The notes below the pieces were generated by a model. That model was not told the origin of the DNA and searched no databases. It was given only the letters and a program-made list of their open reading frames with translations. Source: a virus (lineage: Duplodnaviria; Caudoviricetes). Taken from it: a stretch of 64,000 bases of DNA. The position numbers and the translations under genes were made by a program. The DNA lies in IMG/VR virus record IMGVR_UViG_3300020460_000012; one strand, written 5' to 3'. Positions 30,759 to 51,785 of this stretch are shown here, piece after piece (within the stretch, counting starts at the first letter, position 1; every line of letters begins with the position of its first letter).

Positions 30759-30787
30759 ATTATACTACAATTTTATGAGGTTGTCAA
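30759..30787 (-). promoter_or_regulatory. Sigma70-like promoter
   Basis: TTGACA-17-TATAAT. Confidence 0.75.
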
Positions 30788-30790
30788 CTA

Positions 30791-31687
30791 TTATTTTGCT
30801 TTAAGTGCCGCCCAGAGTTGGGACTTGATAGATTCTGTAGCGTAATCTTTTTTATGTTTTGTAATACCTGCTTTGGCATCTTTTTTCTTATCTTTATGCT
30901 TACCAGCGGCTCCACTTTTACGTAAAGCTTCCATATCACGCCAATTTGGATCTCTAGCTTTCATAAGTTTTGGCTTCTTTTTGCCTTCTACAAATTCTTT
31001 TATTACATCTTCAAGATAAGCTATTCTTGCTTCTAATGCTTCAATAGTACCAGTGCCTGCTTTTGCGTCTACTAATGTAAACTTTTTACCATTTACCGAC
31101 ATTATTTGTTTACGGCTTATAGCGTAAGTAGCACCTTTCATATTAAGTTGGATTTGTGGTTTGCCTTCACCATCAACTTTGCCTTGGATTAGGTCAACTA
31201 CAGGTACATCTTTTCTAAATTGTCCTTTTGCATTCTTATATGAAACTAGATCACCTTTAGCTAAAGTATGACCTTCTTTACTTGTTGGCCAATCACCACC
31301 TTGTGGCTTTGGTGCAGGTTCTCCTGGTTTTGGCTTTGGTGCAGGTGTAGTACCTTTTACAGGAGCAGGCTTATCTTTTGGAGCATCTAATTTAACATTA
31401 AGTGCATCTACTTTGTTATAATTTTTAAAACCATGTTTAATAGCATCTAACGGAGTAGCTTCATTCAATTGCACTCCGGCAAGTTTAGCAAAATCGCTAA
31501 CACTATAATCTTTATCTACTGGAACCGATCCTGGTTCAACTTCTACAGTTTCTGTAATTGTTTTATTTAAAACTTCATGTCCAGAGGGTGCTTCTCCTTC
31601 AGCCATCTCTCTAATTTTTCGTATATCTTCCGCAGGATCTGCAGGATCAAGTTCAAATAACTTTTGTTGGAGTGCATGATAATCCAT
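30791..31687 (-). CDS. Putative internal head/cargo protein
   Basis: Recurrent x-x-E junctions (KLFE, LNE, VEG, ATE) flanking Lys-rich and Pro-rich modules. Confidence 0.55.
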   Translation of the reverse strand: MDYHALQQKLFELDPADPAEDIRKIREMAEGEAPSGHEVLNKTITETVEVEPGSVPVDKDYSVSDFAKLAGVQLNEATPLDAIKHGFKNYNKVDALNVKLDAPKDKPAPVKGTTPAPKPKPGEPAPKPQGGDWPTSKEGHTLAKGDLVSYKNAKGQFRKDVPVVDLIQGKVDGEGKPQIQLNMKGATYAISRKQIMSVNGKKFTLVDAKAGTGTIEALEARIAYLEDVIKEFVEGKKKPKLMKARDPNWRDMEALRKSGAAGKHKDKKKDAKAGITKHKKDYATESIKSQLWAALKAK

Positions 31688-32166
31688 TATTTTTTTCTTT
31701 TGCCAGAAGCTTTCCCAGCATGTACAGCTTTACGATGTGCGGCTGATTTAAACTTACCTTCTAGTTTTGCATGTAGTTGCTCTTTGTAAGTTTTTTCTTC
31801 CGGTATACTATCATCGTTGCAATTACAGTGTTTGCAGTTTGGAGGACATTCGCAGTCTTCTCTTTTTACATCACTACCGCAACACTCATCTTTGCAATGT
31901 GTATCTTTTTGTGATTCTGACATTGGGCTATTTTCATAATCTAAATGATGATAAACAGAACCTAGCATTTCACTAGCTTTTGTAATTTTAGATTGTATCC
32001 AACCTTCAAGGCCATCAGCTTCGCTTACATTTTTAAGCATCTCGTGAAGCTTTATTGAATACTTTGCGGATTTGTAAAGCTGAGCACGGGCCATTTGCAC
32101 TTCGTGATCTCTTTCAGCAATGTCTGCTAGTTCGCCTAATCCTTCTTCTATTTCTGCTTTTCTCAT
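31687..32166 (-). CDS. Putative internal head protein with Cys-rich module
   Basis: N-terminal MRKAEIEE; internal CKDECCGS..CECPPNCKHCNC. Confidence 0.6.
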   Translation of the reverse strand: MRKAEIEEGLGELADIAERDHEVQMARAQLYKSAKYSIKLHEMLKNVSEADGLEGWIQSKITKASEMLGSVYHHLDYENSPMSESQKDTHCKDECCGSDVKREDCECPPNCKHCNCNDDSIPEEKTYKEQLHAKLEGKFKSAAHRKAVHAGKASGKRKK

Positions 32167-32193
32167 TTTAGGTTCCCGTTGTTCTATACGTAT

Positions 32194-32412
32194 TTATCGT
32201 TTTATAGCCTTGCCGCCCATTACGTTGGCCTTGAGATCTAGTGCATTTTTAGCTGTGCCGTCTGAATTTGTAGCTTGCGGTGCTTCAGGTGCTCCATACT
32301 TGCCTTTTTTCTTTACTTTGCGTTTTGCTCCAGGCACACTTGCAATGGTTGCAATACTACCCGCGACGGTTACACCAGATTCACTAGTTTCTAATATTTC
32401 TTTAATTTTCAT
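32194..32412 (-). CDS. Small basic putative internal head protein
   Basis: N-terminal MKIKEILE followed by a Lys-rich body. Confidence 0.6.
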   Translation of the reverse strand: MKIKEILETSESGVTVAGSIATIASVPGAKRKVKKKGKYGAPEAPQATNSDGTAKNALDLKANVMGGKAIKR

Positions 32413-32493
32413 TTAGCACCCGCAATCAGAACCTGCACAAGTGCAGGGTGAGCAAGTACAATTTTCGCATTTGCAATTTGGATTTGCACACAT
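32413..32493 (-). CDS. Metallothionein-like 26-aa peptide (not in ORF track)
   Basis: AAGGAG SD; MCANPNCKCENCTCSPCTCAGSDCGC with 9 Cys; the stop abuts the next ATG. Confidence 0.8.
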   Translation of the reverse strand: MCANPNCKCENCTCSPCTCAGSDCGC

Positions 32494-32512
32494 AATAAAT
32501 CTCCTTATAATA

Positions 32513-32520
32513 TATTTATC
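32513..32520 (-). promoter_or_regulatory. Late-promoter-like GATAAATA
   Basis: Same octamer occurs in short intergenic gaps at 13312, 32191, 38502, 46160, 55445 and 60883. Confidence 0.55.
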
Positions 32521-32524
32521 CTAA

Positions 32525-32815
32525 TTATTTTCTTTTGCCACGAAATCTTCTTACGTGTCCTTCGTAAAAAATCATGGTATACCAAGGTGCATTTCTAGGC
32601 ATTTTTCTTGTATATTCCCACGCCACATTGTTTTTATCAATCCATACTACATGATAACCTGCCCACCTACGAGAAGGATACCATTCTGTACTGCCGCCTT
32701 TTGTAATGAGTTGTTCGAGGGTCCAATGATAACAATTATTTTTTTTAGTAAAAAACCTTACAGGCCAAAACCAAAAAAAGATAGCTATGATTAAGCCTGT
32801 ATTAACCAATTTCAT
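32525..32815 (-). CDS. Hypothetical membrane-anchored protein
   Basis: N-terminal hydrophobic segment; Trp/Tyr-rich. Confidence 0.55.
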   Translation of the reverse strand: MKLVNTGLIIAIFFWFWPVRFFTKKNNCYHWTLEQLITKGGSTEWYPSRRWAGYHVVWIDKNNVAWEYTRKMPRNAPWYTMIFYEGHVRRFRGKRK

Positions 32816-32826
32816 GTAAGTAATTA

Positions 32827-35112
32827 TTATTTTTTAGAGCGACCGCTTTTCATATTGGCGCACCAATGATACATAGCACGTTTTTCGCCTGAGGAATTTT
32901 TGGCTCTTTTACGTAAATCAGTGACAGAACCTTTACAACTTGCACCTGAACGTTTCACACGTCCTGGTCTGCTTTTGCCTTTTTTCTTACCATCTGCAAA
33001 ATTTTCGGTTGCAGGTTCTTTGATTTTTTGTTTTATTTCTTTTGCTGTCCTTTGGAACTTGTAATCTTTGTATTTAAAACCTATACCACCAGCGTTTTCC
33101 CAGGACTCTATATTTTTGCCAAAGTCATCTATTAGTATATTAGGTGTGCCGTCTTTTTGTGTTGCAAATTGTGCTTTGTTATGTGTTACAAAAACATTTT
33201 TTGGCGGAAAAAAACTTAAATTATTTTTAATCCATTCACGTTTGTGTGGTTCGCTACGTGGATCATCTGCTAGTGGACTGGTACATATACTATAACTACC
33301 TTTTACTTGTTTTATTAATCCTAATAGCTCTTTTGCTTTAGGAAGTAATGGTAAATTTAACCAAAAGTCATCTATATCTTTGATATCACCTATTGCTTGT
33401 GCAGGATCTTTTATATCTTTCCAATTATCAACGCCTTGTGACTTTGACCATTCACCGAAAAAGTCAGCAAGTACACCATCCATGTCTACATAAATTTCAG
33501 AGTTTTTTTTTATTTCGCCTAAAGCTTCCCTAAGACTTTCATCTACGTGACCGTCATCACCGTGCTTATCTGCGTCTTGTGTTTTATAACCTATACGATT
33601 TAAATGCTTTTTTAAATGTTTCTTTTCTTTTTCTCCACCAAAAGGAACAACCATTACATCTGGTTCATCTCTGTTTGCTCCTTTTTTTACACTCTTGATA
33701 TTAGCAACATGCTTTCCTATACGAAGAAAGTCATAAGCAGTATCTGCTTTTGTAAGAAAAGTATTCTTTGGATTCTTAAAATGATCTGCTTCAAATATTT
33801 CTAGTATTTTTTCTAGTGTAAAAGGTAATCTAGCAACATCTGCTTCTTTAATTCCTAACATTTGTAGTGCAGTATATCTATGATGTCCGTTTACTATTCT
33901 ATTTTTACTATCTATAATAATAGGATTATAGTCGCCTGCAACAATATTGTCAACTTGTTTTTTAAAATTTTCTAGTATACGTTCCTCTTGTACAGGAATA
34001 AGCTTTTTTATATCTATAGTTTCAAGACTATGTTTGATATTTTCAAGTTGCTTGTTTTTAATTTGCGGTAGTTCGTTTCTAGTGTAATTTGATTTAAGTT
34101 TACGTTTTTTTTTAGGTTTCTTATCTAATGAAAGTTTTTTAACATTCATATATTCACCACCAACAGGAACATCCTTTGTAGCATTTTGTTTTGTTACAAT
34201 GCCAACACCGTATTCTTTAACTTTGTTTTTTACATTTTTAGCTTTACCGCGTCTATCTGGATTAGGATCTTTTTTCCTTTTGCGTTTAACAGCATTTGCT
34301 ATAGCTTTTTTGCCACCACTTGATCTTAGACTTGCGGCTTTTGACTTACTTAAACACTTTGGCTTGCCCTCACCAGGTTTAGAATCACCACACTTACCTA
34401 TACGCTCACCTTTAGTGTTATATCTATCCCAGCCGCCACCACCTGCACCGCCTTTTTTACCTTTACCAAACCATGCACGTAGATCTTCCTTTACGAGATA
34501 TCCAGTATCGTCTACATAATGTCCTGGAGGTATGGGTTTACATTGCTTACTATCGTTACAGTAGTATTCACCGTCTTTACATTGTTCAGAGTTTTTTTTT
34601 ATTTCGCCTGTTGTGCCTTCGAACATTTGGTCATTCATATCTAGCCATTGCATCAAAGGATAAAGTGTATTGACTACTAAATTAGCAAAAGCTGCCGCAC
34701 CCATATGATCATTGCTATGCTGTAAATCGGGTTTGTAAATTCTTTCCATTTTTTTAGCTTCGCCCCGTAAAGCCATTACATCTTTTAAAATAGGTTTTAA
34801 TTTGTCAGGAGCACCTGCAGGAAATCCGCCTAATTTGTTTTCCATCCAAGTATATACGTCATATACATCGTTTACATATTCATTTGGTAGATTGCCTTTG
34901 TATTCTTGTTGCCCTCTTTCAAGCTGTTTTCCTTTACCTCTAAGTTGGGCAAGTACTTCTATAGCATCTCTTGTGCTACTAATACTAGCTTCTTCAAGGT
35001 CTGCTTCATTTTTTACACAATTAGGCACACGTTTTCCGAACATAGTTTTCATGCCCTTCTTTTTGTAGCCCTTCCAGCAACGTGTTCCTTCTTTGAAATC
35101 ACTGTATCTCAT
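32827..35112 (-). CDS. Modular polyprotein: basic Cys modules, ParB/Srx-like domain and HAD 5'(3')-deoxyribonucleotidase
   Basis: IIIDSKNRIVNGHHRY (ParB-like), IYVDMDGVLADF...LIDD (HAD), separated by Glu junctions. Confidence 0.8.
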   Translation of the reverse strand: MRYSDFKEGTRCWKGYKKKGMKTMFGKRVPNCVKNEADLEEASISSTRDAIEVLAQLRGKGKQLERGQQEYKGNLPNEYVNDVYDVYTWMENKLGGFPAGAPDKLKPILKDVMALRGEAKKMERIYKPDLQHSNDHMGAAAFANLVVNTLYPLMQWLDMNDQMFEGTTGEIKKNSEQCKDGEYYCNDSKQCKPIPPGHYVDDTGYLVKEDLRAWFGKGKKGGAGGGGWDRYNTKGERIGKCGDSKPGEGKPKCLSKSKAASLRSSGGKKAIANAVKRKRKKDPNPDRRGKAKNVKNKVKEYGVGIVTKQNATKDVPVGGEYMNVKKLSLDKKPKKKRKLKSNYTRNELPQIKNKQLENIKHSLETIDIKKLIPVQEERILENFKKQVDNIVAGDYNPIIIDSKNRIVNGHHRYTALQMLGIKEADVARLPFTLEKILEIFEADHFKNPKNTFLTKADTAYDFLRIGKHVANIKSVKKGANRDEPDVMVVPFGGEKEKKHLKKHLNRIGYKTQDADKHGDDGHVDESLREALGEIKKNSEIYVDMDGVLADFFGEWSKSQGVDNWKDIKDPAQAIGDIKDIDDFWLNLPLLPKAKELLGLIKQVKGSYSICTSPLADDPRSEPHKREWIKNNLSFFPPKNVFVTHNKAQFATQKDGTPNILIDDFGKNIESWENAGGIGFKYKDYKFQRTAKEIKQKIKEPATENFADGKKKGKSRPGRVKRSGASCKGSVTDLRKRAKNSSGEKRAMYHWCANMKSGRSKK
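33496..33520. repeat. 25-bp direct repeat, copy 1
   Basis: TTCAGAGTTTTTTTTTATTTCGCCT, identical to 34585-34609. Confidence 0.85.
34585..34609. repeat. 25-bp direct repeat, copy 2
   Basis: Identical to 33496-33520; both encode GEIKKNSE in the same ORF. Confidence 0.85.
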
Positions 35113-35303
35113 TTTTTTGACTTATTCCCCCAGTTTTTTGCGCCTACTTTACGACAACGTACTAATGCACCACTTGCATATGCACTTGGCCAAACTTTAT
35201 AGCGACTTTTAACTTTGTGATAACAAGCATCTTTTTTGCCAGCGGCTTCATCAAATTCTGCTTCTGTTACAAGTTTTTGTTCTGTTACTTCATTTGTTTT
35301 CAT
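35109..35303 (-). CDS. Small basic protein (DUF5872-like), putative internal head protein
   Basis: MKTNEVTE..TEAEFDEA then KKDACYHKVK..WPSAYASGALVRCRK. Confidence 0.7.
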   Translation of the reverse strand: MKTNEVTEQKLVTEAEFDEAAGKKDACYHKVKSRYKVWPSAYASGALVRCRKVGAKNWGNKSKK

Positions 35304-35304
35304 T

Positions 35305-35550
35305 TTACCAAACCTTCTTAATATGATATTCTATCGGCTTCAAAAATTTCAATTCATTCCTATTATTATCTAGATCTTTAAAAATAATGTGCTTTGGTGT
35401 TACCTTTATTAATTTCTTTGCTTTGTATTTAACCTGTTTTGTGGATTCAGTCCTAGTTCCGTCAGCATGAACCAATGTATCGTTTGGTACTGTTAATATA
35501 AGTTCATACTCTTCTTTAGTAACTCGTTGCCACCAAGTTCTTAAGCTCAT
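35305..35550 (-). CDS. Hypothetical protein
   Basis: 81-aa ORF coupled within the operon. Confidence 0.6.
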   Translation of the reverse strand: MSLRTWWQRVTKEEYELILTVPNDTLVHADGTRTESTKQVKYKAKKLIKVTPKHIIFKDLDNNRNELKFLKPIEYHIKKVW

Positions 35551-35756
35551 TACTTCCTTCCTCTAAATGTTGCCCCTGTCATATAAGGCTTGCTAAACCA
35601 TAGTTCAAACCATTCCTTATCTCCAGGCTTAATATTGTTTTCCTTTTCTTTCTTTTTTAGCTCATTTGCAGTTTTACTCATATTCTCCAAAGTATATTCT
35701 GTGTAACCTTTAAATTCATTTACACCTGCTAGTTCTTTTAAACGTTCAATATTCAT
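35550..35756 (-). CDS. Small putative internal head protein
   Basis: N-terminal MNIERLKELAGVNE. Confidence 0.6.
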   Translation of the reverse strand: MNIERLKELAGVNEFKGYTEYTLENMSKTANELKKKEKENNIKPGDKEWFELWFSKPYMTGATFRGRK

Positions 35757-37063
35757 TTTTTCTTCTTTAAACGTCTTCTAAGTTTATCTATATCATCTGC
35801 CGCGTGATCTGGATTATCTTTATCCAATGAATAGTATCCAGGTCCTTTTAAATTTTTTAATGCCTTCTTTATTCCTTCTAAAATATCTTCATCTGTAACA
35901 GTAAAGTATTTTTTATTTCTTGTTTTTACTTTTTGACCACTTAATTGTTTAAGTATAAAGCTTAGTTTTTCTACATCAGTTTCTTGACTTGCAAATTTTT
36001 CAATTTCTCTTTGTAAGTGTGCTATTAATGCTGATCTGTCTAAAACAAGATCACCTTCGTTTGCGTTTTCCTCTACTTGTACACGTATTCCTAAATTTTT
36101 AAATAAATTCTGAGCACCTTGAAAAGTCTTTAATGCTTTTTGCATAAGCTCTTGTTCATCTTCTGCTCTAGTATCATAAAAATTAATAAATTTTGTTGCT
36201 TCTTTAGGACCAATAAAAATTTTGCCTCCTGAACTTGCTGTCATATCACCTGTATCTTTATAACTTAGTGGCCAAGGATTCTGATCTTTTCTTGCACTTA
36301 TATTTGTTAAAACATCTATCTTAGGTCTTTGTTGTGCTACTTTAAGTTCTGCAATATCTTCTTGGTTTTTTGCAAGTTTAGTTGCTGTTGCATACATTAC
36401 AGCATCAGCATCTTTTCCGTAACGCTTTTTAAAACTACTTTTTGTTTTTTTCATACCCTTTACAATACGTTCTTTTTCTTTTTCTTCACCTTTTGTAAGT
36501 TCTCGTTCTGTAATTCCCATTCCTTTGCGTACTGCATCATATAAAGCATTGGCTAATTTTTGATCTATTACACCTTGTTTGAAAGAATCAAAATCGTCTG
36601 ACATTGCCGCGGCTCTCATTTTACTAGCACTCATTCCTTCTGCACCGTCAGCGTCAGGATCACGTTCTCCAGCACTTACAACTTGTATATTTTTAAAATT
36701 ATACTCCTTGCCATTATATTTTGTAATTAATTCTTTGAAATCATCTACTCTGTCACTGCCAGCTACATAAGTTATACTGGTATAACCTAAAGACTCCAAT
36801 TTTTGTAATGCTTTTATAATAGTATTAACACTACTATCACCTACTGTAACATTGGGAAAAAATTGCTTTGCAAATTTAAGCTTTGTTTGAAAATCTAAAG
36901 GGTCAGTTTTTGGTTTTTGTGTTTGGGTTATAAACAGAAAAGGATCACCTTGCTGGGAAGCTACAACGTCAACTAACTTTTTGTGACCTATAGTGGGAGG
37001 ATTCATTCTCCCAAATGCTAGTGTTGCCGCCTTTTCGGCTTCATATAATTCCCTGACCAGCAT
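35753..37063 (-). CDS. Cytidylyltransferase-like (HxGH) nucleotidyltransferase with C-terminal modules
   Basis: FGRMNPPTIGH, AGSDR and MSASKMR motifs; N-terminal MLVRELYE. Confidence 0.85.
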   Translation of the reverse strand: MLVRELYEAEKAATLAFGRMNPPTIGHKKLVDVVASQQGDPFLFITQTQKPKTDPLDFQTKLKFAKQFFPNVTVGDSSVNTIIKALQKLESLGYTSITYVAGSDRVDDFKELITKYNGKEYNFKNIQVVSAGERDPDADGAEGMSASKMRAAAMSDDFDSFKQGVIDQKLANALYDAVRKGMGITERELTKGEEKEKERIVKGMKKTKSSFKKRYGKDADAVMYATATKLAKNQEDIAELKVAQQRPKIDVLTNISARKDQNPWPLSYKDTGDMTASSGGKIFIGPKEATKFINFYDTRAEDEQELMQKALKTFQGAQNLFKNLGIRVQVEENANEGDLVLDRSALIAHLQREIEKFASQETDVEKLSFILKQLSGQKVKTRNKKYFTVTDEDILEGIKKALKNLKGPGYYSLDKDNPDHAADDIDKLRRRLKKKK

Positions 37064-37393
37064 TTAGTATGCTCCAGTTTCAATCTGTTTCATTTCTTCA
37101 CCAAAAATTTTGTTTATGGCTTCGTCACGATCTTGCAGTTTAAATATTTTATCTCTACTGCCTAATTTAAACTTTTCGCAGTATTTGTCCATAGCTTCAT
37201 CTACAATAGGACCTAATACTTGCTGTGGTACAATACTCTTTTGCCCATCATGCATATCTTTCATTTTCATAATACATGGATACATTCTTTTACGGTAAAA
37301 CATAGGGTCGTTACGCATGAAAATAGATAGATCATCTACAACGTCATAAGGTAAATTATCAGTATGTGGTGTTGCGAATTCATTTATTTTCAT
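37064..37393 (-). CDS. Hypothetical protein, putative head cargo
   Basis: N-terminal MKINE. Confidence 0.65.
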   Translation of the reverse strand: MKINEFATPHTDNLPYDVVDDLSIFMRNDPMFYRKRMYPCIMKMKDMHDGQKSIVPQQVLGPIVDEAMDKYCEKFKLGSRDKIFKLQDRDEAINKIFGEEMKQIETGAY

Positions 37394-37410
37394 TTTTTCT
37401 CTCTAACTTC

Positions 37411-37584
37411 CTAATATCGAGGTATACTTGCTTTAGCCTGTAAATCATTGCAACGATTTTCCATACCTTGTAGTTGCATTTTTAATTTACTAATTTCTTC
37501 TTTGAGCTTTGTAATTTCTATGTCTTTTGCTCTCACTTCTTCTAATCCTCTATAGCCGTACTCTGTATAACCACCATCTACCAT
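37411..37584 (-). CDS. 57-aa coiled-coil protein (not in ORF track)
   Basis: MVDGGYTEYGYRGLEEVRAKDIEITKLKEE...; fills the gap and overlaps the upstream stop. Confidence 0.55.
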   Translation of the reverse strand: MVDGGYTEYGYRGLEEVRAKDIEITKLKEEISKLKMQLQGMENRCNDLQAKASIPRY

Positions 37585-38144
37585 TTACGGCAACTCCAAT
37601 ACCTCGCTTTTGTTCTTGGTCCTGGATTGTCGCAATTATGTCTAGCTCTAAAACTCCTACGTCTTGCAGGGTTAGATTTTTTAATTTTCATGTTTGGGTC
37701 ACCAAAGTTTACTTTTTTGATATTTTTTGTTTTGGGGTCTCTTACATAAACTTTAAACTTTTTGACATCCCCACGGGTTGGCTTTCCCAATTTTACTTTA
37801 CGCCCCCTGTACTCTGCTTCATCTAAATCGTCATCTTCGTTAAACCACATTACTCCATATTCTTCGTAAAAGTCATCACCGTCATATGTTTCTTCATCGA
37901 GGTCGTCTTCTAAATCAGTGCTTATTTCAATATCAAAATCTTCATGCCCTTGTTCAAACATATAGTTAGCTAAACGATTTGCATATTCTGTAGCTTCGTC
38001 TTCTGAAAGTAATCTAGCCAAAGGTATTTCAATAACTGTTGCACCCTGTTCTGATTCGTATACTTCGCTACTAGGAAAAATTGATTCATCTAATTTAGTT
38101 AGTGATTCATGTTTTTCCATTACTACTCTTACAAAATTTTCCAT
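37578..38144 (-). CDS. Acidic N-terminus plus basic C-terminal module (DUF6321-like)
   Basis: LDEAEYRGRKV junction, KVNFGDPNM and ARHNCD..YWSC. Confidence 0.7.
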   Translation of the reverse strand: MENFVRVVMEKHESLTKLDESIFPSSEVYESEQGATVIEIPLARLLSEDEATEYANRLANYMFEQGHEDFDIEISTDLEDDLDEETYDGDDFYEEYGVMWFNEDDDLDEAEYRGRKVKLGKPTRGDVKKFKVYVRDPKTKNIKKVNFGDPNMKIKKSNPARRRSFRARHNCDNPGPRTKARYWSCRKW

Positions 38145-38154
38145 TTTTAATTCC

Positions 38155-38496
38155 TCAATGATTCATTACAATACTGTTTATAGTGCCATCCGTATAAGAC
38201 ACATGGGCTCTAAGCCAAATATAGTTTCCAGTAAAATTGTTTATAGTTGAGCCAGTATCATTAGATAATACAACACTATCTACATGAAACCAATCAGCGG
38301 TGCCGGGTGTTGTTGCAAGTGTTGCTTCTACTTTTAAGGTTCCTGTAAACCCAGTATAGTTGTATTGTACAGTATGAAGGCCATCACTGCGGCCGTAGTA
38401 CCCGTCACCTTTAAATTGTTCGCCTGTTATAAAGGTTTGTGTACTATCGCCTGGATGCGTATTTGCTGATAAAATTATTTCACTATTACTGCTCAT
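38155..38496 (-). CDS. Hypothetical (virion-associated?) beta-rich protein
   Basis: GDGYYG..GLHTVQY; preceded by GATAAATA; probable start MSSNSE. Confidence 0.6.
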   Translation of the reverse strand: MSSNSEIILSANTHPGDSTQTFITGEQFKGDGYYGRSDGLHTVQYNYTGFTGTLKVEATLATTPGTADWFHVDSVVLSNDTGSTINNFTGNYIWLRAHVSYTDGTINSIVMNH

Positions 38497-38500
38497 ATAA

Positions 38501-39199
38501 CTATTTATCAATAGTTGGAGGCATGTACACTAAATTGTATGTGCCTCTTATAGCGTGTCCTACTAACATTTGCACAATAGATAATACTTTCTCGTCTCTT
38601 ACATGAAAGTAAAAACCACCCAAATTTAAATTATCATCTATTGATTGTAGAGCTTTATCACCTATCCTTGATTTATCTCTATTTGCACGTAGCCAATTAG
38701 CAAAATCAGGAGCAACTTTTTCGTCTTTAAATATTACTCTGATAGGAAATTCCGTCTTAGTGTTTACAATAATATTATCTTCTTTGAGGATATGTCCTAC
38801 TGCTGGAGCAGGTCGCCAAATTCCGTGTATAGAATTTTCTAATTTGTCTATTAATTTGTATAAAAGTGTGTCATTGTTTGTATAAACAGAAATACTAGCT
38901 CCAGTTTCTACTCTTATTTTATACTCTTTTTCATCTTTTAATAGCAAATATAAATTTTTTGCACCTAAATAATCATCCATAGGTACTTCACGTTCTGTTC
39001 TAAAAACTTTTTGTACTAATGGTTGTCCATTACGGTAATTGCTTGCAAAAGAGTCTAACTGTTCTCTTGCAAAATCTAAAGATTTACTTTTCTGATTTTC
39101 TGATCTAAATATTATGTTGAGTTGATTTTTAAGCTCGACTTTAAATAAGTATTGTTTAAAAAATAACTTCTTTGTCTCATACTGTTTCAACGATTTCAT
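38501..39199 (-). CDS. Hypothetical protein
   Basis: 232-aa ORF overlapping the clpA end. Confidence 0.7.
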   Translation of the reverse strand: MKSLKQYETKKLFFKQYLFKVELKNQLNIIFRSENQKSKSLDFAREQLDSFASNYRNGQPLVQKVFRTEREVPMDDYLGAKNLYLLLKDEKEYKIRVETGASISVYTNNDTLLYKLIDKLENSIHGIWRPAPAVGHILKEDNIIVNTKTEFPIRVIFKDEKVAPDFANWLRANRDKSRIGDKALQSIDDNLNLGGFYFHVRDEKVLSIVQMLVGHAIRGTYNLVYMPPTIDK

Positions 39200-41423
39200 C
39201 TTTTACACAATCCAATTTAATCTCTTTATCTCTATAATCAATAGTTAAAGAGCCACCATTTTTAAGATCACCAAATAACATCTCTCTTGCAAGTTTACGT
39301 TTTATATCTTGATCAATTACTCTTTGTAAAGGTCTTGCACCCATTTTAGGATCAAATCCTTTTTCGACCAAGTAATCTAATGTGTCGTCAGTGATAGTAA
39401 TTGCAATATCTTTTTCAATAACCATTTGTTTAAGTTCCAGTAGAAACTTACCTACTATTTTCATCATTACTTCTTTGCTTAATTTAGCAAAAGTAATCAC
39501 ACCATCTAATCTATTTCTAAATTCAGGAGCAAAGTAACGTTTTAAGTCGGTATCTTCATACTCTTGTTCTAATGTTTTGGTAAACCCAATAGTGTTTTGT
39601 TCGGCTTTTTCTGATCCTAAATTTGTTGTTAGTATTAAAGTACAATTTCTAGCATCAGCTACTTTACCATTAGAGCCTGTAACTTTACCGTTGTCCATAA
39701 GTTGCAGTAAAATCGTACTTACATCAGGGTGAGCCTTTTCAATTTCATCTAGCAATAAAACACAATTAGGAAATTCCTGTAACTTAGTAATAAGCAATCC
39801 ATTATTTTCTTCATATCCAACATATCCTGGAGGAGAACCAATTAGTTTTGCTACACTATGTCTTTCCTGATACTCACTCATGTCAAATCTAACAAGTTTG
39901 ACTCCTAATCCTTTTGCAAGTTGTTTAGCAGTTTCAGTTTTACCTGTACCAGTAGGACCCATAAACACAAAAGAACCTATGGGCTTATCGTTTGCTTTAA
40001 GTCCTGCTTGACTTACTAGCACTTTGTCTACAATACTTTCTATTGCTTCATCTTGACCATATACAGAACCTTTAATATTCTTTTCTAGATTTGCTAAACT
40101 TTCAGTTTCTTTTTCTGCAATTCTTTCTGTAGGCATATCAACTATTTTTGCAAGCTCAAACTCTATTTGCTCTGCGCCTACTACTTTTTCTTGTTCTGCA
40201 ATATCGTTTACTTTGAATCTAGAGCATGCAATATCAATTAAGTCTATTGCTTTATCAGGAAGTTTTTTATCTGACTGATATTTTATACTTAATTTAATAG
40301 CAGTATCTATTGCTTCTTCTGTAATTGTTGTCTCGTGAAACTTTTCATAATATTTTTTAATACCAACTAAAATATCTTTGGTAGTTTCTTTTGTAGGTTC
40401 TCCTATAGTTACTCTTTGAAACCTACGCATTAATGCACGATCTGACTCGAAGTACTTTCTATATTCTTCCCACGTGGTTGATGCAACCACTTTTAAATCA
40501 CCTTTTGTCAAAGCAGGTTTTAACATATTTGCTAGATCATTAGAGTTATTACCGCCGCCTGTGCCTGCACCATTCATCATATGTGCTTCGTCGATAAACA
40601 TTATAGTCTTGCCTTGCTTGATTAGTGCAGATAAAACTAATTTAAACCTTTCTTCAAAGTCGCCTCTATACTTAGACCCTGCTAGCATTGCGCCTATATC
40701 TAAATTATACACCTTGTATTCTTTAAGAAAAGAAGGAACTTTGTCATTTTCTATATTATATGCCAAACCTTCTGCAATAGCTGTTTTACCAACACCTGGA
40801 TCCCCTACCATTAGGACATTATTTTTTTGCCTGCGTCCTAATGCAAGTGCTAAACTTTCTAGTTCATTTCCACGTCCTATAATTGGATCTATTTTTTCTC
40901 TTTTAACCTGATCATTTAGATTTGTTGTAAAGGCTCTTAAAGCCCTTTTAGCTTCTCCACTTACTTCTTCTTCATCGTAAAGATCATGTGCAATTTCTGC
41001 ATCAAGGAATTCTGCAAATCCTGGTTTTGTTACTCCGCCTTTTTCTAAATAATATACTGAAACTGATTTCTTCTCATTCAGCATACTTAATACTACATCT
41101 GTAAGATCAATAGTATTTCTACCAGCAAATAATACTTGTGTAAATGCCCTATTCAATACTCTTTCCACAGTATGGGTTTTTTTTGGTTTAAATTTTTCGT
41201 TATCAGTAATAATGTCCTGCATATTATTTTTTAAATGATGCTCTAAATTTCCTTTTATGTACTCAATATCTGCACCAAACATAGTAATAATATTACAGAA
41301 CTTTTCTTCGCAAAAAATTGCATAAAGTAAATGTTCTAATGTAACATATTCATGCTGAAGCTTTTTGGCATCATTAATTGCTTTATCAAAAACTAACTGT
41401 AACTCTTTAGACGGTTCTACCAT
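39177..41423 (-). CDS. clpA: ATP-dependent Clp protease ATP-binding subunit (ClpA-like)
   Basis: Clp N-domain, two AAA modules (GDPGVGKT, GPTGTGKT), RFDMSEY and GARPL; no ClpB middle domain. Confidence 0.92.
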   Translation of the reverse strand: MVEPSKELQLVFDKAINDAKKLQHEYVTLEHLLYAIFCEEKFCNIITMFGADIEYIKGNLEHHLKNNMQDIITDNEKFKPKKTHTVERVLNRAFTQVLFAGRNTIDLTDVVLSMLNEKKSVSVYYLEKGGVTKPGFAEFLDAEIAHDLYDEEEVSGEAKRALRAFTTNLNDQVKREKIDPIIGRGNELESLALALGRRQKNNVLMVGDPGVGKTAIAEGLAYNIENDKVPSFLKEYKVYNLDIGAMLAGSKYRGDFEERFKLVLSALIKQGKTIMFIDEAHMMNGAGTGGGNNSNDLANMLKPALTKGDLKVVASTTWEEYRKYFESDRALMRRFQRVTIGEPTKETTKDILVGIKKYYEKFHETTITEEAIDTAIKLSIKYQSDKKLPDKAIDLIDIACSRFKVNDIAEQEKVVGAEQIEFELAKIVDMPTERIAEKETESLANLEKNIKGSVYGQDEAIESIVDKVLVSQAGLKANDKPIGSFVFMGPTGTGKTETAKQLAKGLGVKLVRFDMSEYQERHSVAKLIGSPPGYVGYEENNGLLITKLQEFPNCVLLLDEIEKAHPDVSTILLQLMDNGKVTGSNGKVADARNCTLILTTNLGSEKAEQNTIGFTKTLEQEYEDTDLKRYFAPEFRNRLDGVITFAKLSKEVMMKIVGKFLLELKQMVIEKDIAITITDDTLDYLVEKGFDPKMGARPLQRVIDQDIKRKLAREMLFGDLKNGGSLTIDYRDKEIKLDCVKDEIVETV

Positions 41424-41424
41424 A

Positions 41425-42291
41425 CTATTTTATCTCTTCTTTTAAATTTCTAATTTTATTTAACAAATTCTCATCTGCTATTTTAGGTGTTTCGACATCA
41501 ATAATAACGTGTATGTTACCACGTTGTTTTGAATGTATGTCAGTTATTCCATAACCTGGAATACTAAATCTTTGGCCTGGATTTGTGCCTGGTGGTATTG
41601 TTAATTTTACTTGCCTATTGTCTAATGTGTTTACTATTATAGCACATCCTAGCAATAAGTCAAATAGATTTATTACTTTTCTTGTAATTAAATCGTTATT
41701 TTTTCGCTCCCAACCTTGAACTGGACTAACTTGAATAACAACATGCAGATTTCCCCTCCTTAATTCCTTATGTCTATCGTCACCGAGCCCTTGATATTGG
41801 ATAGTATCTCCGTCTTTGGCTCCAGGCGGAATATCTATATTTAATGTTTCCGTTCTACCTGAACCAAGTTGTATTTGAACAACTAAATTTTTACCATTTA
41901 CAACATCATGTAAATCAATATTTGCAACAATACGCATGTCTTGATTTCTTGGAGGTTGTCTACGCATATTTGCAAAAGGATGTCCGCCTTGAAACATGCC
42001 GTCAAATGGAGTGCCTGCAAATGGATTCCCATTACTTAAATCGTCTGCATTAAAATGGAAATTAAAACCTTGTGGACGTTGTTGCTGGGGATCAGTAGTA
42101 CCGTATTGGTCGTACATTTGACGCTTGCTTGGATCTTTTAATGTTGCATAAGCTTCATTAACTTTTTTGAATTGCTCTTCGTCACCTCCCCTATCAGGGT
42201 GGTGTTGCATGCTTTGTTTTTTGTAAGCTTTTTTTAATTCCGCGTCAGAAGCTTGCTTACTTACACCAAGTATATCATAAAAGTCACTCAT
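41425..42291 (-). CDS. dnaJ: DnaJ/CbpA-type co-chaperone (no zinc finger)
   Basis: DFYDILGV..HHPDRGG J-domain, G/F region and C-terminal domain. Confidence 0.9.
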   Translation of the reverse strand: MSDFYDILGVSKQASDAELKKAYKKQSMQHHPDRGGDEEQFKKVNEAYATLKDPSKRQMYDQYGTTDPQQQRPQGFNFHFNADDLSNGNPFAGTPFDGMFQGGHPFANMRRQPPRNQDMRIVANIDLHDVVNGKNLVVQIQLGSGRTETLNIDIPPGAKDGDTIQYQGLGDDRHKELRRGNLHVVIQVSPVQGWERKNNDLITRKVINLFDLLLGCAIIVNTLDNRQVKLTIPPGTNPGQRFSIPGYGITDIHSKQRGNIHVIIDVETPKIADENLLNKIRNLKEEIK

Positions 42292-51770: not shown

Positions 51771-51785
51771 TTATTGTTCTTCCTG

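Follow-up and report, generated by a model that had tools for sequence, protein, structure and literature searches.

The question raised by the locus described here, at positions 30791-38144 of a stretch of DNA from a tailed virus (IMG/VR record IMGVR_UViG_3300020460_000012), is what a compact run of co-oriented and largely unannotated genes does for the phage that carries it. The window, by which we mean the whole 64-kb stretch that was analysed, is the reverse strand of positions 93,494-157,493 on a 335-kb contig (C57), and every gene of the cluster lies on its minus strand. Pfam searches of the cluster proteins returned only NT5C and a weak cytidylyltransferase match, and most of the genes have no assigned function in PHROGs. 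An earlier note on this DNA had proposed that about nine of them begin with a short leader ending in Glu, as do the internal head proteins of phage T4, and that they form an arsenal delivered with the DNA. We regard it as fairly probable, by analogy with T4, that the cluster is a late unit (about 38.5 to 30.8 kb, minus strand) for capsid-targeted head cargo, some of it made as polyproteins that would be diced by the prohead protease.

The nine leaders are genuine N-termini, all nine being found at the start of minus-strand genes within 30791-38144; they measure 5-16 residues, most commonly 8. A loose form of the motif, in which Met is followed within about 14 residues by aliphatic-x-Glu, occurs in 10 of the 12 open reading frames (ORFs) of the cluster and in 74 of the 395 other ORFs of the contig (19%; Fisher p=4e-6), and the exact 8-mer ^M.{4}[LIVMF].E occurs in 6/12 and 6/395 (1.5%; p=1.3e-7), respectively. 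The syntenic cluster of three related uncultured phages (loci L006, L009, and L010) shows the same enrichment, with a leader in 24 of 28 cluster genes and 8 of 53 flanking genes (p=5e-10) and the exact 8-mer in 11 of 28 and 0 of 53; because the contexts counted are related sequences, these p-values overstate independence. Furthermore, a position matrix trained solely on the leaders of the related loci placed five cluster genes among the top six of the 407 ORFs of the contig.

Conservation of the leaders is most evident for the cytidylyltransferase-family enzyme of the cluster, as an 8-mer with a terminal aliphatic-x-Glu opens 112 of the 113 full-length homologues and mostly reads M-x-L-R-E-L-[FY]-E. 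Two homologues of this enzyme bear MKFSDIKE or MKFNDIKE, the leader type of the 761-aa protein here, and the leader therefore behaves as a unit that can be exchanged. One of the quoted leaders did not withstand comparison: in MDYHALQQKLFE, at the start of the 298-aa protein, Glu12 is Glu in 57 and Ala in 41 of 105 homologues, and it was rejected as a cut site because of those 41. A better candidate, judging from the aligned family, is the LAGV..aliphatic-x-Glu site at residue 76; the element D-F-A-[KA]-L-A-G-V-x-[LI]-x-E occupies residues 66-76 in 113 of 120 members, and the sequences diverge beyond it. The LAGV...E element also serves as leader at the N-terminus of the 68-aa gene product and of certain homologues of the 298-aa protein. 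There are therefore at least two leader classes, each ending in aliphatic-x-Glu: class 1 has 8 residues (M-[KR]-x-x-[DE]-aliphatic-x-E), and class 2 has 14-16 residues and contains LAGV.

The likeness to T4 leaders stood when checked against the T4 record, which gives MKTYQEFIAE|A for ipII and ipIII and MAKINELLRE|S for gp24, with further sites in gp22 (MLKEQLIAE|A) and at the end of the gp23 propeptide (FLTE|A). According to a review, T4 leaders are 10-19 residues long, with targeting via residues 4 and 7 and processing via residues 8 and 10 (P3 and P1). The related proteases of T4 and giant phages all cut after Glu, and the contig encodes a member of the gp21 family (peptidase S77; PF03420, 91 bits), with portal, scaffold, and capsid genes adjoining. 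In T4, exchange of the leader Glu for Asp prevents cleavage and leaves targeting intact. The T4-type portal, S77 prohead protease, scaffold, and major capsid protein are each present in single copy on this contig, which also carries a family-B DNA polymerase. Thus, the proteins here share with T4 IPI, IPII, IPIII, and Alt a short N-terminal propeptide ending in aliphatic-x-Glu and a gp21-family protease in the genome, together with late motifs, basic mature parts, and an enzyme in the set, which is Alt in T4 and a cytidylyltransferase-family protein here. There are also differences: LAGV marks a second class of leaders, numerous cargo units are joined into polyproteins in which every module has a cut motif ahead of it, and the tagged genes are far more numerous than in T4. 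Cyanomyovirus 10-mers fit the functional positions of T4 (S-SM1 MKKFSAFLNE, S-CREM2 MKNFSSFLTE, and P-SSM4 MLSFKAYLAE), and the 8-mer of the phage here retains P3 and P1, with the aromatic positions missing. Pfam and PHROG searches gave no homology of the protein bodies to IPI, IPII, IPIII, or Alt, and the likeness, as read from the sequences, is one of mechanism and not of descent. When the capsid protein was aligned with T4 gp23, no Glu was found at the T4 cut position; candidates (LLE18 and LSE41) lie nearby, so this comparison is not decisive.

The earlier note had also placed acidic Glu junctions before internal modules, and boundary counts in the CW, DUF5872, LRAWF, and HEVQMAR families bear this out. 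The N-terminal modules of the 761-aa protein recur in 1411 database proteins in varied orders and combinations, where the enzymes fused to them include NT5C, pterin dehydratase, and one annotated 2'-5' RNA ligase. For the count, anchors were set near the N-terminal edge of a module, and aliphatic-x-Glu was scored 0-8 residues upstream in unique contexts only. The motif was present in 40 of 42 contexts for CW, 20 of 20 for DUF5872, and 53 of 59 for LRAWF (47 of these at one fixed offset), as compared with a background of 22% over the full length of these proteins (2.8% when the fixed offset is scored) and with 0/13 and 1/24 for control anchors placed mid-module. In the LRAWF alignment the upstream sequence is unalignable and P2 is variable, whereas P3 and P1 are conserved. 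The 159-aa protein begins, after its leader, with the HEVQMAR domain, for which 2381 representative homologues were found; 84 of them carry the domain N-terminally, after an 8-mer leader, and where it is internal the boundary Glu is present in 59 of 60, with V/I/L/M (41) or T (15) two residues earlier. Hence one and the same module follows a leader at the N-terminus and aliphatic-x-Glu at internal positions. A DUF5872 homologue in CRP-7, a non-T4 Roseobacter phage, consists of a bare 47 aa and lacks the acidic leader, which, for this single outgroup, argues that the junction motif is not part of the module.

Structural models point the same way, as the candidate sites fall in low-confidence flexible stretches beside small folded modules in AlphaFold2 models, and residues 1-18 of the 64-aa protein are predicted to be disordered and residues 19-53 helical. 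A Foldseek search of two module models of moderate confidence (pLDDT 64 and 70) against the PDB gave no match. Among representative homologues of the 159-aa protein (P0363-P0512), about one quarter of the internal HEVQMAR junctions have a retained Met upstream of the boundary Glu, at a distance of 5-7 residues (M-x-K-x-aliphatic-x-E). The sequences suggest that the polyproteins arise through in-frame fusion of adjacent leader-bearing genes; mis-called starts could look alike. In addition, an exact 25-bp in-frame direct repeat is found at positions 33496-33520 and 34585-34609 of the window, GEIKKNSE being encoded by both copies. The repeats flank a 1089-bp cassette with a Cys module, an LRAWF module, the ParB-like domain, and an internal promoter, and the pair looks like the footprint of module gain or loss.

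Late expression is indicated by three copies of GATAAATA, which the earlier note had taken as late-type motifs and which are indeed placed as late promoters would be, on the minus strand and 5-24 nt before start codons. The copy at 38502..38509 opens the transcription unit, 5 nt before the ATG (38496) of a gene for a 113-aa virion-structural-like protein; that at 32513..32520 lies 19 nt before the ATG (32493) of a 26-aa Cys-rich ORF, and that at 32191..32198 lies 24 nt before the ATG (32166) of the 159-aa gene. In the window, the core ATAAATA is about threefold rarer than expected (15 copies versus 41), and 12 of its 13 minus-strand (coding-strand) copies sit just upstream of an ATG; on this distribution it appears to be a clean late-promoter signal for the phage lineage. 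The motif also precedes the genes for a baseplate/tail-fibre connector, a 1802-aa baseplate-like protein, and a virion structural protein in the window. Its positions are kept in relatives, the copy at 32191 in all three syntenic loci, and in S-CREM2 TATAAATA is found 20 nt before the gene for gp154, a cytidylyltransferase detected in virions. A second signal, TTGACA-17-TATAAT, has six perfect copies in the window where 0.13 are expected, all on the coding strand and five of them intergenic. One of the intergenic copies, a perfect sigma-70 promoter at 30759..30787 (minus strand), lies just past the cluster and starts an early DsbA-like/polB unit. The remaining copy (33925..33953, minus strand) is located inside the 761-aa ORF at the ParB-like domain and is unexplained, and through it the C-terminal (NT5C) part or downstream genes may be expressed early.

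The closest approach to the particle itself comes from relatives. Families found in virions of the cyanomyoviruses S-SM1 and S-CREM2 include homologues of the 436-aa enzyme and of the CW, LRAWF, and DUF5872 modules. In S-SM1 (PMC3037559), the cytidylyltransferase T4-GC190 was detected with 25 peptides, the modular basic protein T4-GC119 with 13, and the cytidylyltransferase neighbours T4-GC1453, T4-GC1454, and T4-GC1455 with 12, 10, and 7. Out of five consecutive genes in the S-SM1 cluster, four were represented by 7-25 peptides apiece. In S-CREM2 (PMC10665884), mass spectrometry detected the cytidylyltransferase gp154 and its neighbours gp155, gp156, and gp160, and gp160 contains LHDWF, CW, and DUF5872 modules, the same three as the proteins here.

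Sequence patterns, conservation, late motifs, a protease gene, and homology to virion-detected proteins are therefore observed, and by analogy with T4 they make packaging and processing of the cluster proteins likely. In such a scheme, the short N-terminal leader would bind the scaffolding core while the prohead is being built, and the gp21-family prohead protease would then cut after Glu, stripping leaders and acidic pro-regions. In the mosaic proteins the protease would also cut the aliphatic-x-Glu junction ahead of each module. The basic mini-domains and the enzymes (cytidylyltransferase-family, NT5C nucleotidase, and ParB-like) would stay with the DNA and exit with it at infection. Each of these steps (binding, cleavage, retention, and ejection) is inferred from the T4 precedent, as would be any effector role. 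Of the earlier note's cargo interpretation, the T4-like leaders, the gp21-type protease gene, the late-motif placement, the conserved Glu junctions, and the presence of homologues in virions have all stood, and one leader Glu, that of the 298-aa protein, has fallen.

Besides that Glu and the relatedness of the sequences counted, several points weigh against the cargo interpretation. The leaders are mostly 8 residues long and lack the aromatic residues 4 and 7 of T4. Aliphatic-x-Glu is found within folded domains too, and the motif alone over-predicts cuts; moreover, the Glu before GLGxLA or [DN]-LRxWF could belong to the folds themselves. The internal early-type promoter hints at an early, non-virion role for the C-terminal part of the 761-aa protein. 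The virion detections concern homologues in whole particles of S-SM1 and S-CREM2, the phage here being known from its sequence; T4-GC190 and T4-GC119 went undetected in the Syn9 and S-PM2 virion proteomes, and the S-CREM2 authors themselves consider carry-over of abundant proteins possible (PMC10665884).

The last three points are shared by the rival explanation that survives best, namely that these are late cytoplasmic proteins for nucleotide metabolism and DNA binding that stay outside the head, with the Glu boundaries serving as linkers, helix caps, or sites of another protease, and with virion detection reflecting abundant DNA-binding proteins carried over into the preparations. The cytidylyltransferase, NT5C, and ParB-like enzymes have obvious cytoplasmic uses, and the cluster sits among replication genes. 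However, at least five unrelated module families and the leaders share one boundary motif, which matches the specificity of the phage's own protease family, and the late promoters are common to the cluster and to structural genes. The detection of four of five consecutive S-SM1 genes by many peptides, and the leaderless outgroup homologue in CRP-7, also speak against a purely cytoplasmic role, which we consider unlikely.

A less probable explanation grants entry into the prohead but has the proteins serve only in assembly or in condensing the DNA; they would be accessory core or counter-ion proteins of the kind represented in T4 by gp67, gp68, and internal peptides, with no effector delivered. 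The charge distribution would suit such a role, as the predicted N-terminal parts are acidic and dense in sites, like scaffold proteins, and the bodies are strongly basic, with mature fragments of net +8 to +22; fold searches also yield no enzyme-like fold for the small modules. The position of one further gene can be read in the same sense: an 80-aa gene right after the portal gene (C57 233,727-233,969; L017:1728-1970), with a late motif and the start MILRELFYFDRE (MILRELF), has the position and size of the gene for the T4 prohead core protein gp67 and the leader class of the cytidylyltransferase, and it belongs to no annotated family. Yet the catalytic motifs are intact, both in the cytidylyltransferase-family enzyme (TIGH and SASKMR) and in the 761-aa protein (DMDG and GHHR), and homologues fuse varied enzymes (pterin dehydratase, annotated 2'-5' RNA ligase) to the same modules, which is hard to reconcile with assembly alone. 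In a review, alt, gp67, and gp68 are listed as absent from cyanomyoviruses.

It is a good deal more improbable that the leaders are tags for another machine, such as a modifying enzyme or the ClpA/B-like unfoldase and DnaJ encoded upstream. The order DnaJ, ClpA/B-like ATPase, cluster is conserved, as that proposal would have it, but the conserved neighbourhood holds no radical-SAM or other modifying enzyme, leader-bearing clusters of cyanomyoviruses exist without a nearby Clp gene, and it is precisely with the protease motif that the leaders end. A further idea, that Lys/Glu-rich N-termini of an AT-rich genome produce the pattern by chance or through their composition, could cite the frequency of the loose motif in other ORFs of the contig; it deserves almost no credence and is contradicted by the exact 8-mer counts (50% of the cluster versus 1.5% of other ORFs), their replication in L006, L009, and L010, and the near-complete conservation among cytidylyltransferase homologues.

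Head cargo of the kind favoured here resembles several known systems. The polymorphic ip loci of T-even phages (Repoila et al., 1994, cited in PMC9026906) also comprise variable, unrelated basic proteins with a shared leader in a plastic region, but, to the extent that they are described in that citing source, they are single-module loci of coliphages, whereas module shuffling, fused enzymes, and a spread over marine T4-like phages are seen here. In phiKZ, 201phi2-1, and SPN3US, many head-internal proteins are likewise cut after Glu by a related protease, and extra propeptide sites give small fragments; their P3 is small (A, S, or G), however, and their propeptides are about 80-130 aa long, unlike the short leaders here, in which P3 is V, I, L, M, or F, sometimes T, and thus aliphatic as in T4. 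The Dar anti-restriction proteins of phage P1 are similar in concept as head-packaged proteins delivered with the DNA, although, by their description, they are set apart by another phage type and other incorporation rules. The cyanomyovirus papers on T4-GC190 and T4-GC119 report virion presence only, and leader, protease sites, and polyprotein layout are not described there. A literature search on capsid targeting sequences in cyanophages and marine T4-like phages, DUF5872, and DUF6321, whose coverage was incomplete, did not find the arrangement described. Overall, the mechanism is that of the T4 internal proteins, and the differences lie in the leader sequences, the shuffled polyproteins with their cut motifs, and the spread over marine T4-like phages.

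Read in the direction of transcription, all on the minus strand, the unit opens with the 113-aa protein (38155..38496), which has no leader, matches phrog_14467 (virion structural protein) and phrog_13657, and keeps the same location in the three related loci. The next gene (37578..38144) encodes a 188-aa protein with the leader MENFVRVVME, a 109-aa acidic region with 11 aliphatic-x-Glu sites, and a basic C-terminal domain of net +22; this domain matches phrog_7595 (E=3.6e-12), and the leader is kept in L006 and L010. A coiled-coil-like ORF of 57 aa (37411..37584), whose status as a gene is uncertain, gave no match in a family search. It is followed by a 109-aa protein starting MKINE|F (37064..37393), the orthologues of which begin MKINEF or MRIDEF in L006, L009, and L010. 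The 436-aa cytidylyltransferase-family enzyme (35753..37063; phrog_3041, E=1e-54) carries the leader MLVRELYE|A and added modules, shows the nucleotidyltransferase motifs HxGH and SxxxxR as TIGH and SASKMR, and is 42-48% identical to cyanophage T4-GC190 copies.

Downstream of this enzyme lie the 68-aa protein (35550..35756), whose 14-aa leader, MNIERLKELAGVNE|F, belongs to the LAGV class, and an 81-aa basic ORF with no leader (35305..35550). The 64-aa protein (35109..35303) has the leader MKTNEVTE, an acidic linker with two further sites, and a basic helical DUF5872 module of net +12. A Pfam scan of the proteins here for DUF5872 (PF19197) and DUF6321 (PF19846) gave no match at E<=0.01, and these names come from close homologues of the module proteins, which have precomputed PF19197 and PF19846 matches, and from Atlas neighbours, which include DUF5872. 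The largest product, the 761-aa mosaic polyprotein (32827..35112; leader MRYSDFKE|G), consists of CW, Cys-rich, and LRAWF basic modules, a ParB-like domain with the motif GHHR, an NT5C nucleotidase with the motif DMDG, and a basic tail.

A 96-aa ORF with a hydrophobic N-terminus (32525..32815), probably a membrane protein and not cargo-like, separates the polyprotein from the 26-aa ORF (32413..32493), which contains 9 Cys and has its own Shine-Dalgarno sequence and late motif. Similar Cys-rich stretches are found behind the leader of a 117-aa protein in L010 and within the 159-aa protein here. The 72-aa basic protein that follows (32194..32412; leader MKIKEILE|T) was ranked first of the 407 ORFs by the matrix trained on relatives. 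The unit ends with the 159-aa protein (31687..32166; leader MRKAEIEE|G), made up of the HEVQMAR domain, a Cys-rich stretch, and a basic tail, and with the 298-aa protein (30791..31687), in which a conserved N-terminus and an acidic 76-aa pro-region ending LAGVQLNE|A precede a basic body. At least three ORFs in the run (the 81-aa ORF, the 96-aa membrane-type ORF, and the 26-aa Cys peptide) are not cargo-like by the leader criterion. No tRNA or Rfam match was found inside or near the cluster.

The gene order around the cluster (DnaJ, ClpA/B-like ATPase, small virion-structural-like gene, cluster, DsbA-like gene, polB) is kept in related metagenomic contigs of 187-272 kb. The ClpA/B-like AAA+ ATPase (748 aa) and the DnaJ homologue, at 39177-42291 on the minus strand of the window, lie directly upstream of the cluster within late transcription units; their synteny is kept in L006, L009, and L010, with a peptide deformylase added in one relative. 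A part for these two proteins in cargo handling is conceivable from this arrangement.

As for the phage itself, the cultured phages with the most similar proteins are cyanomyoviruses (Kyanoviridae; 40-48% identity). No psbA match was found in the assembly containing the contig, and the phage is therefore probably not a cyanophage; the source is an uncultured marine T4-like jumbo phage, and its host is probably heterotrophic. A second contig of the same assembly (C77, assembly G000) is a near-duplicate of 153 kb of C57 at 99.9% identity, and both are binned with a 2.36-Mb genome; public contigs of homologous phages are labelled as Euryarchaeota metagenome-assembled genomes. The peptidoglycan hydrolases and DnaJ/Clp genes of the phage point to a bacterial host, so that this placement is probably mis-binning. 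A search of the same assembly for archaeal L31e gave no match.

Leader-bearing genes are also found elsewhere on the contig. A second group, outside the window at C57 20,600-27,800 (locus L018), includes MRYHEFKYLTE on a DUF6267-like 361-aa protein and further starts reading MLLRELY.., MLIREITDTVE, MKMSDIITE, MKVNELIDNFE, and MKVREFTKP...; two proteins of this group are extremely basic, and for one member of the group a virion structural PHROG match and a late motif were found. Further genes that combine a late motif with a T4-like start occur at C57 287,641-288,210 and at 51,777, 224,994, and 225,557, and the starts of such genes include MKTFAEILNE, which is nearly the T4 leader pattern, MRYSDFKQPLFE, MKIDEITN.., and MKINEVTLYE. 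The tagged set therefore exceeds the cluster in the window.

T4-like myoviruses rank among the most abundant marine viruses, and to our knowledge their internal head proteins have so far been undescribed. We tentatively raise the possibility, with clearly less confidence than we attach to the cluster itself, that marine T4-like phages, including cyanomyoviruses, share a cargo code, in which a leader or an aliphatic-x-Glu junction would cause shuffled peptides and enzymes to be loaded into the head and cut free, so as to act before phage gene expression. If this is true, it would explain why a 'core' cytidylyltransferase and 'hypothetical structural proteins' are found in cyanophage virions, and it would mean that a fast-evolving set of small basic, Cys-paired peptides and enzymes enters the host with the DNA. 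Such a sequence rule would predict which proteins are packaged and where they are cut, and would provide thousands of mosaic proteins from metagenomes (DUF5872, DUF6321, and HEVQMAR domain) with a function. Finally, it would nominate candidates for host takeover in the first minute of infection or for counter-defence.

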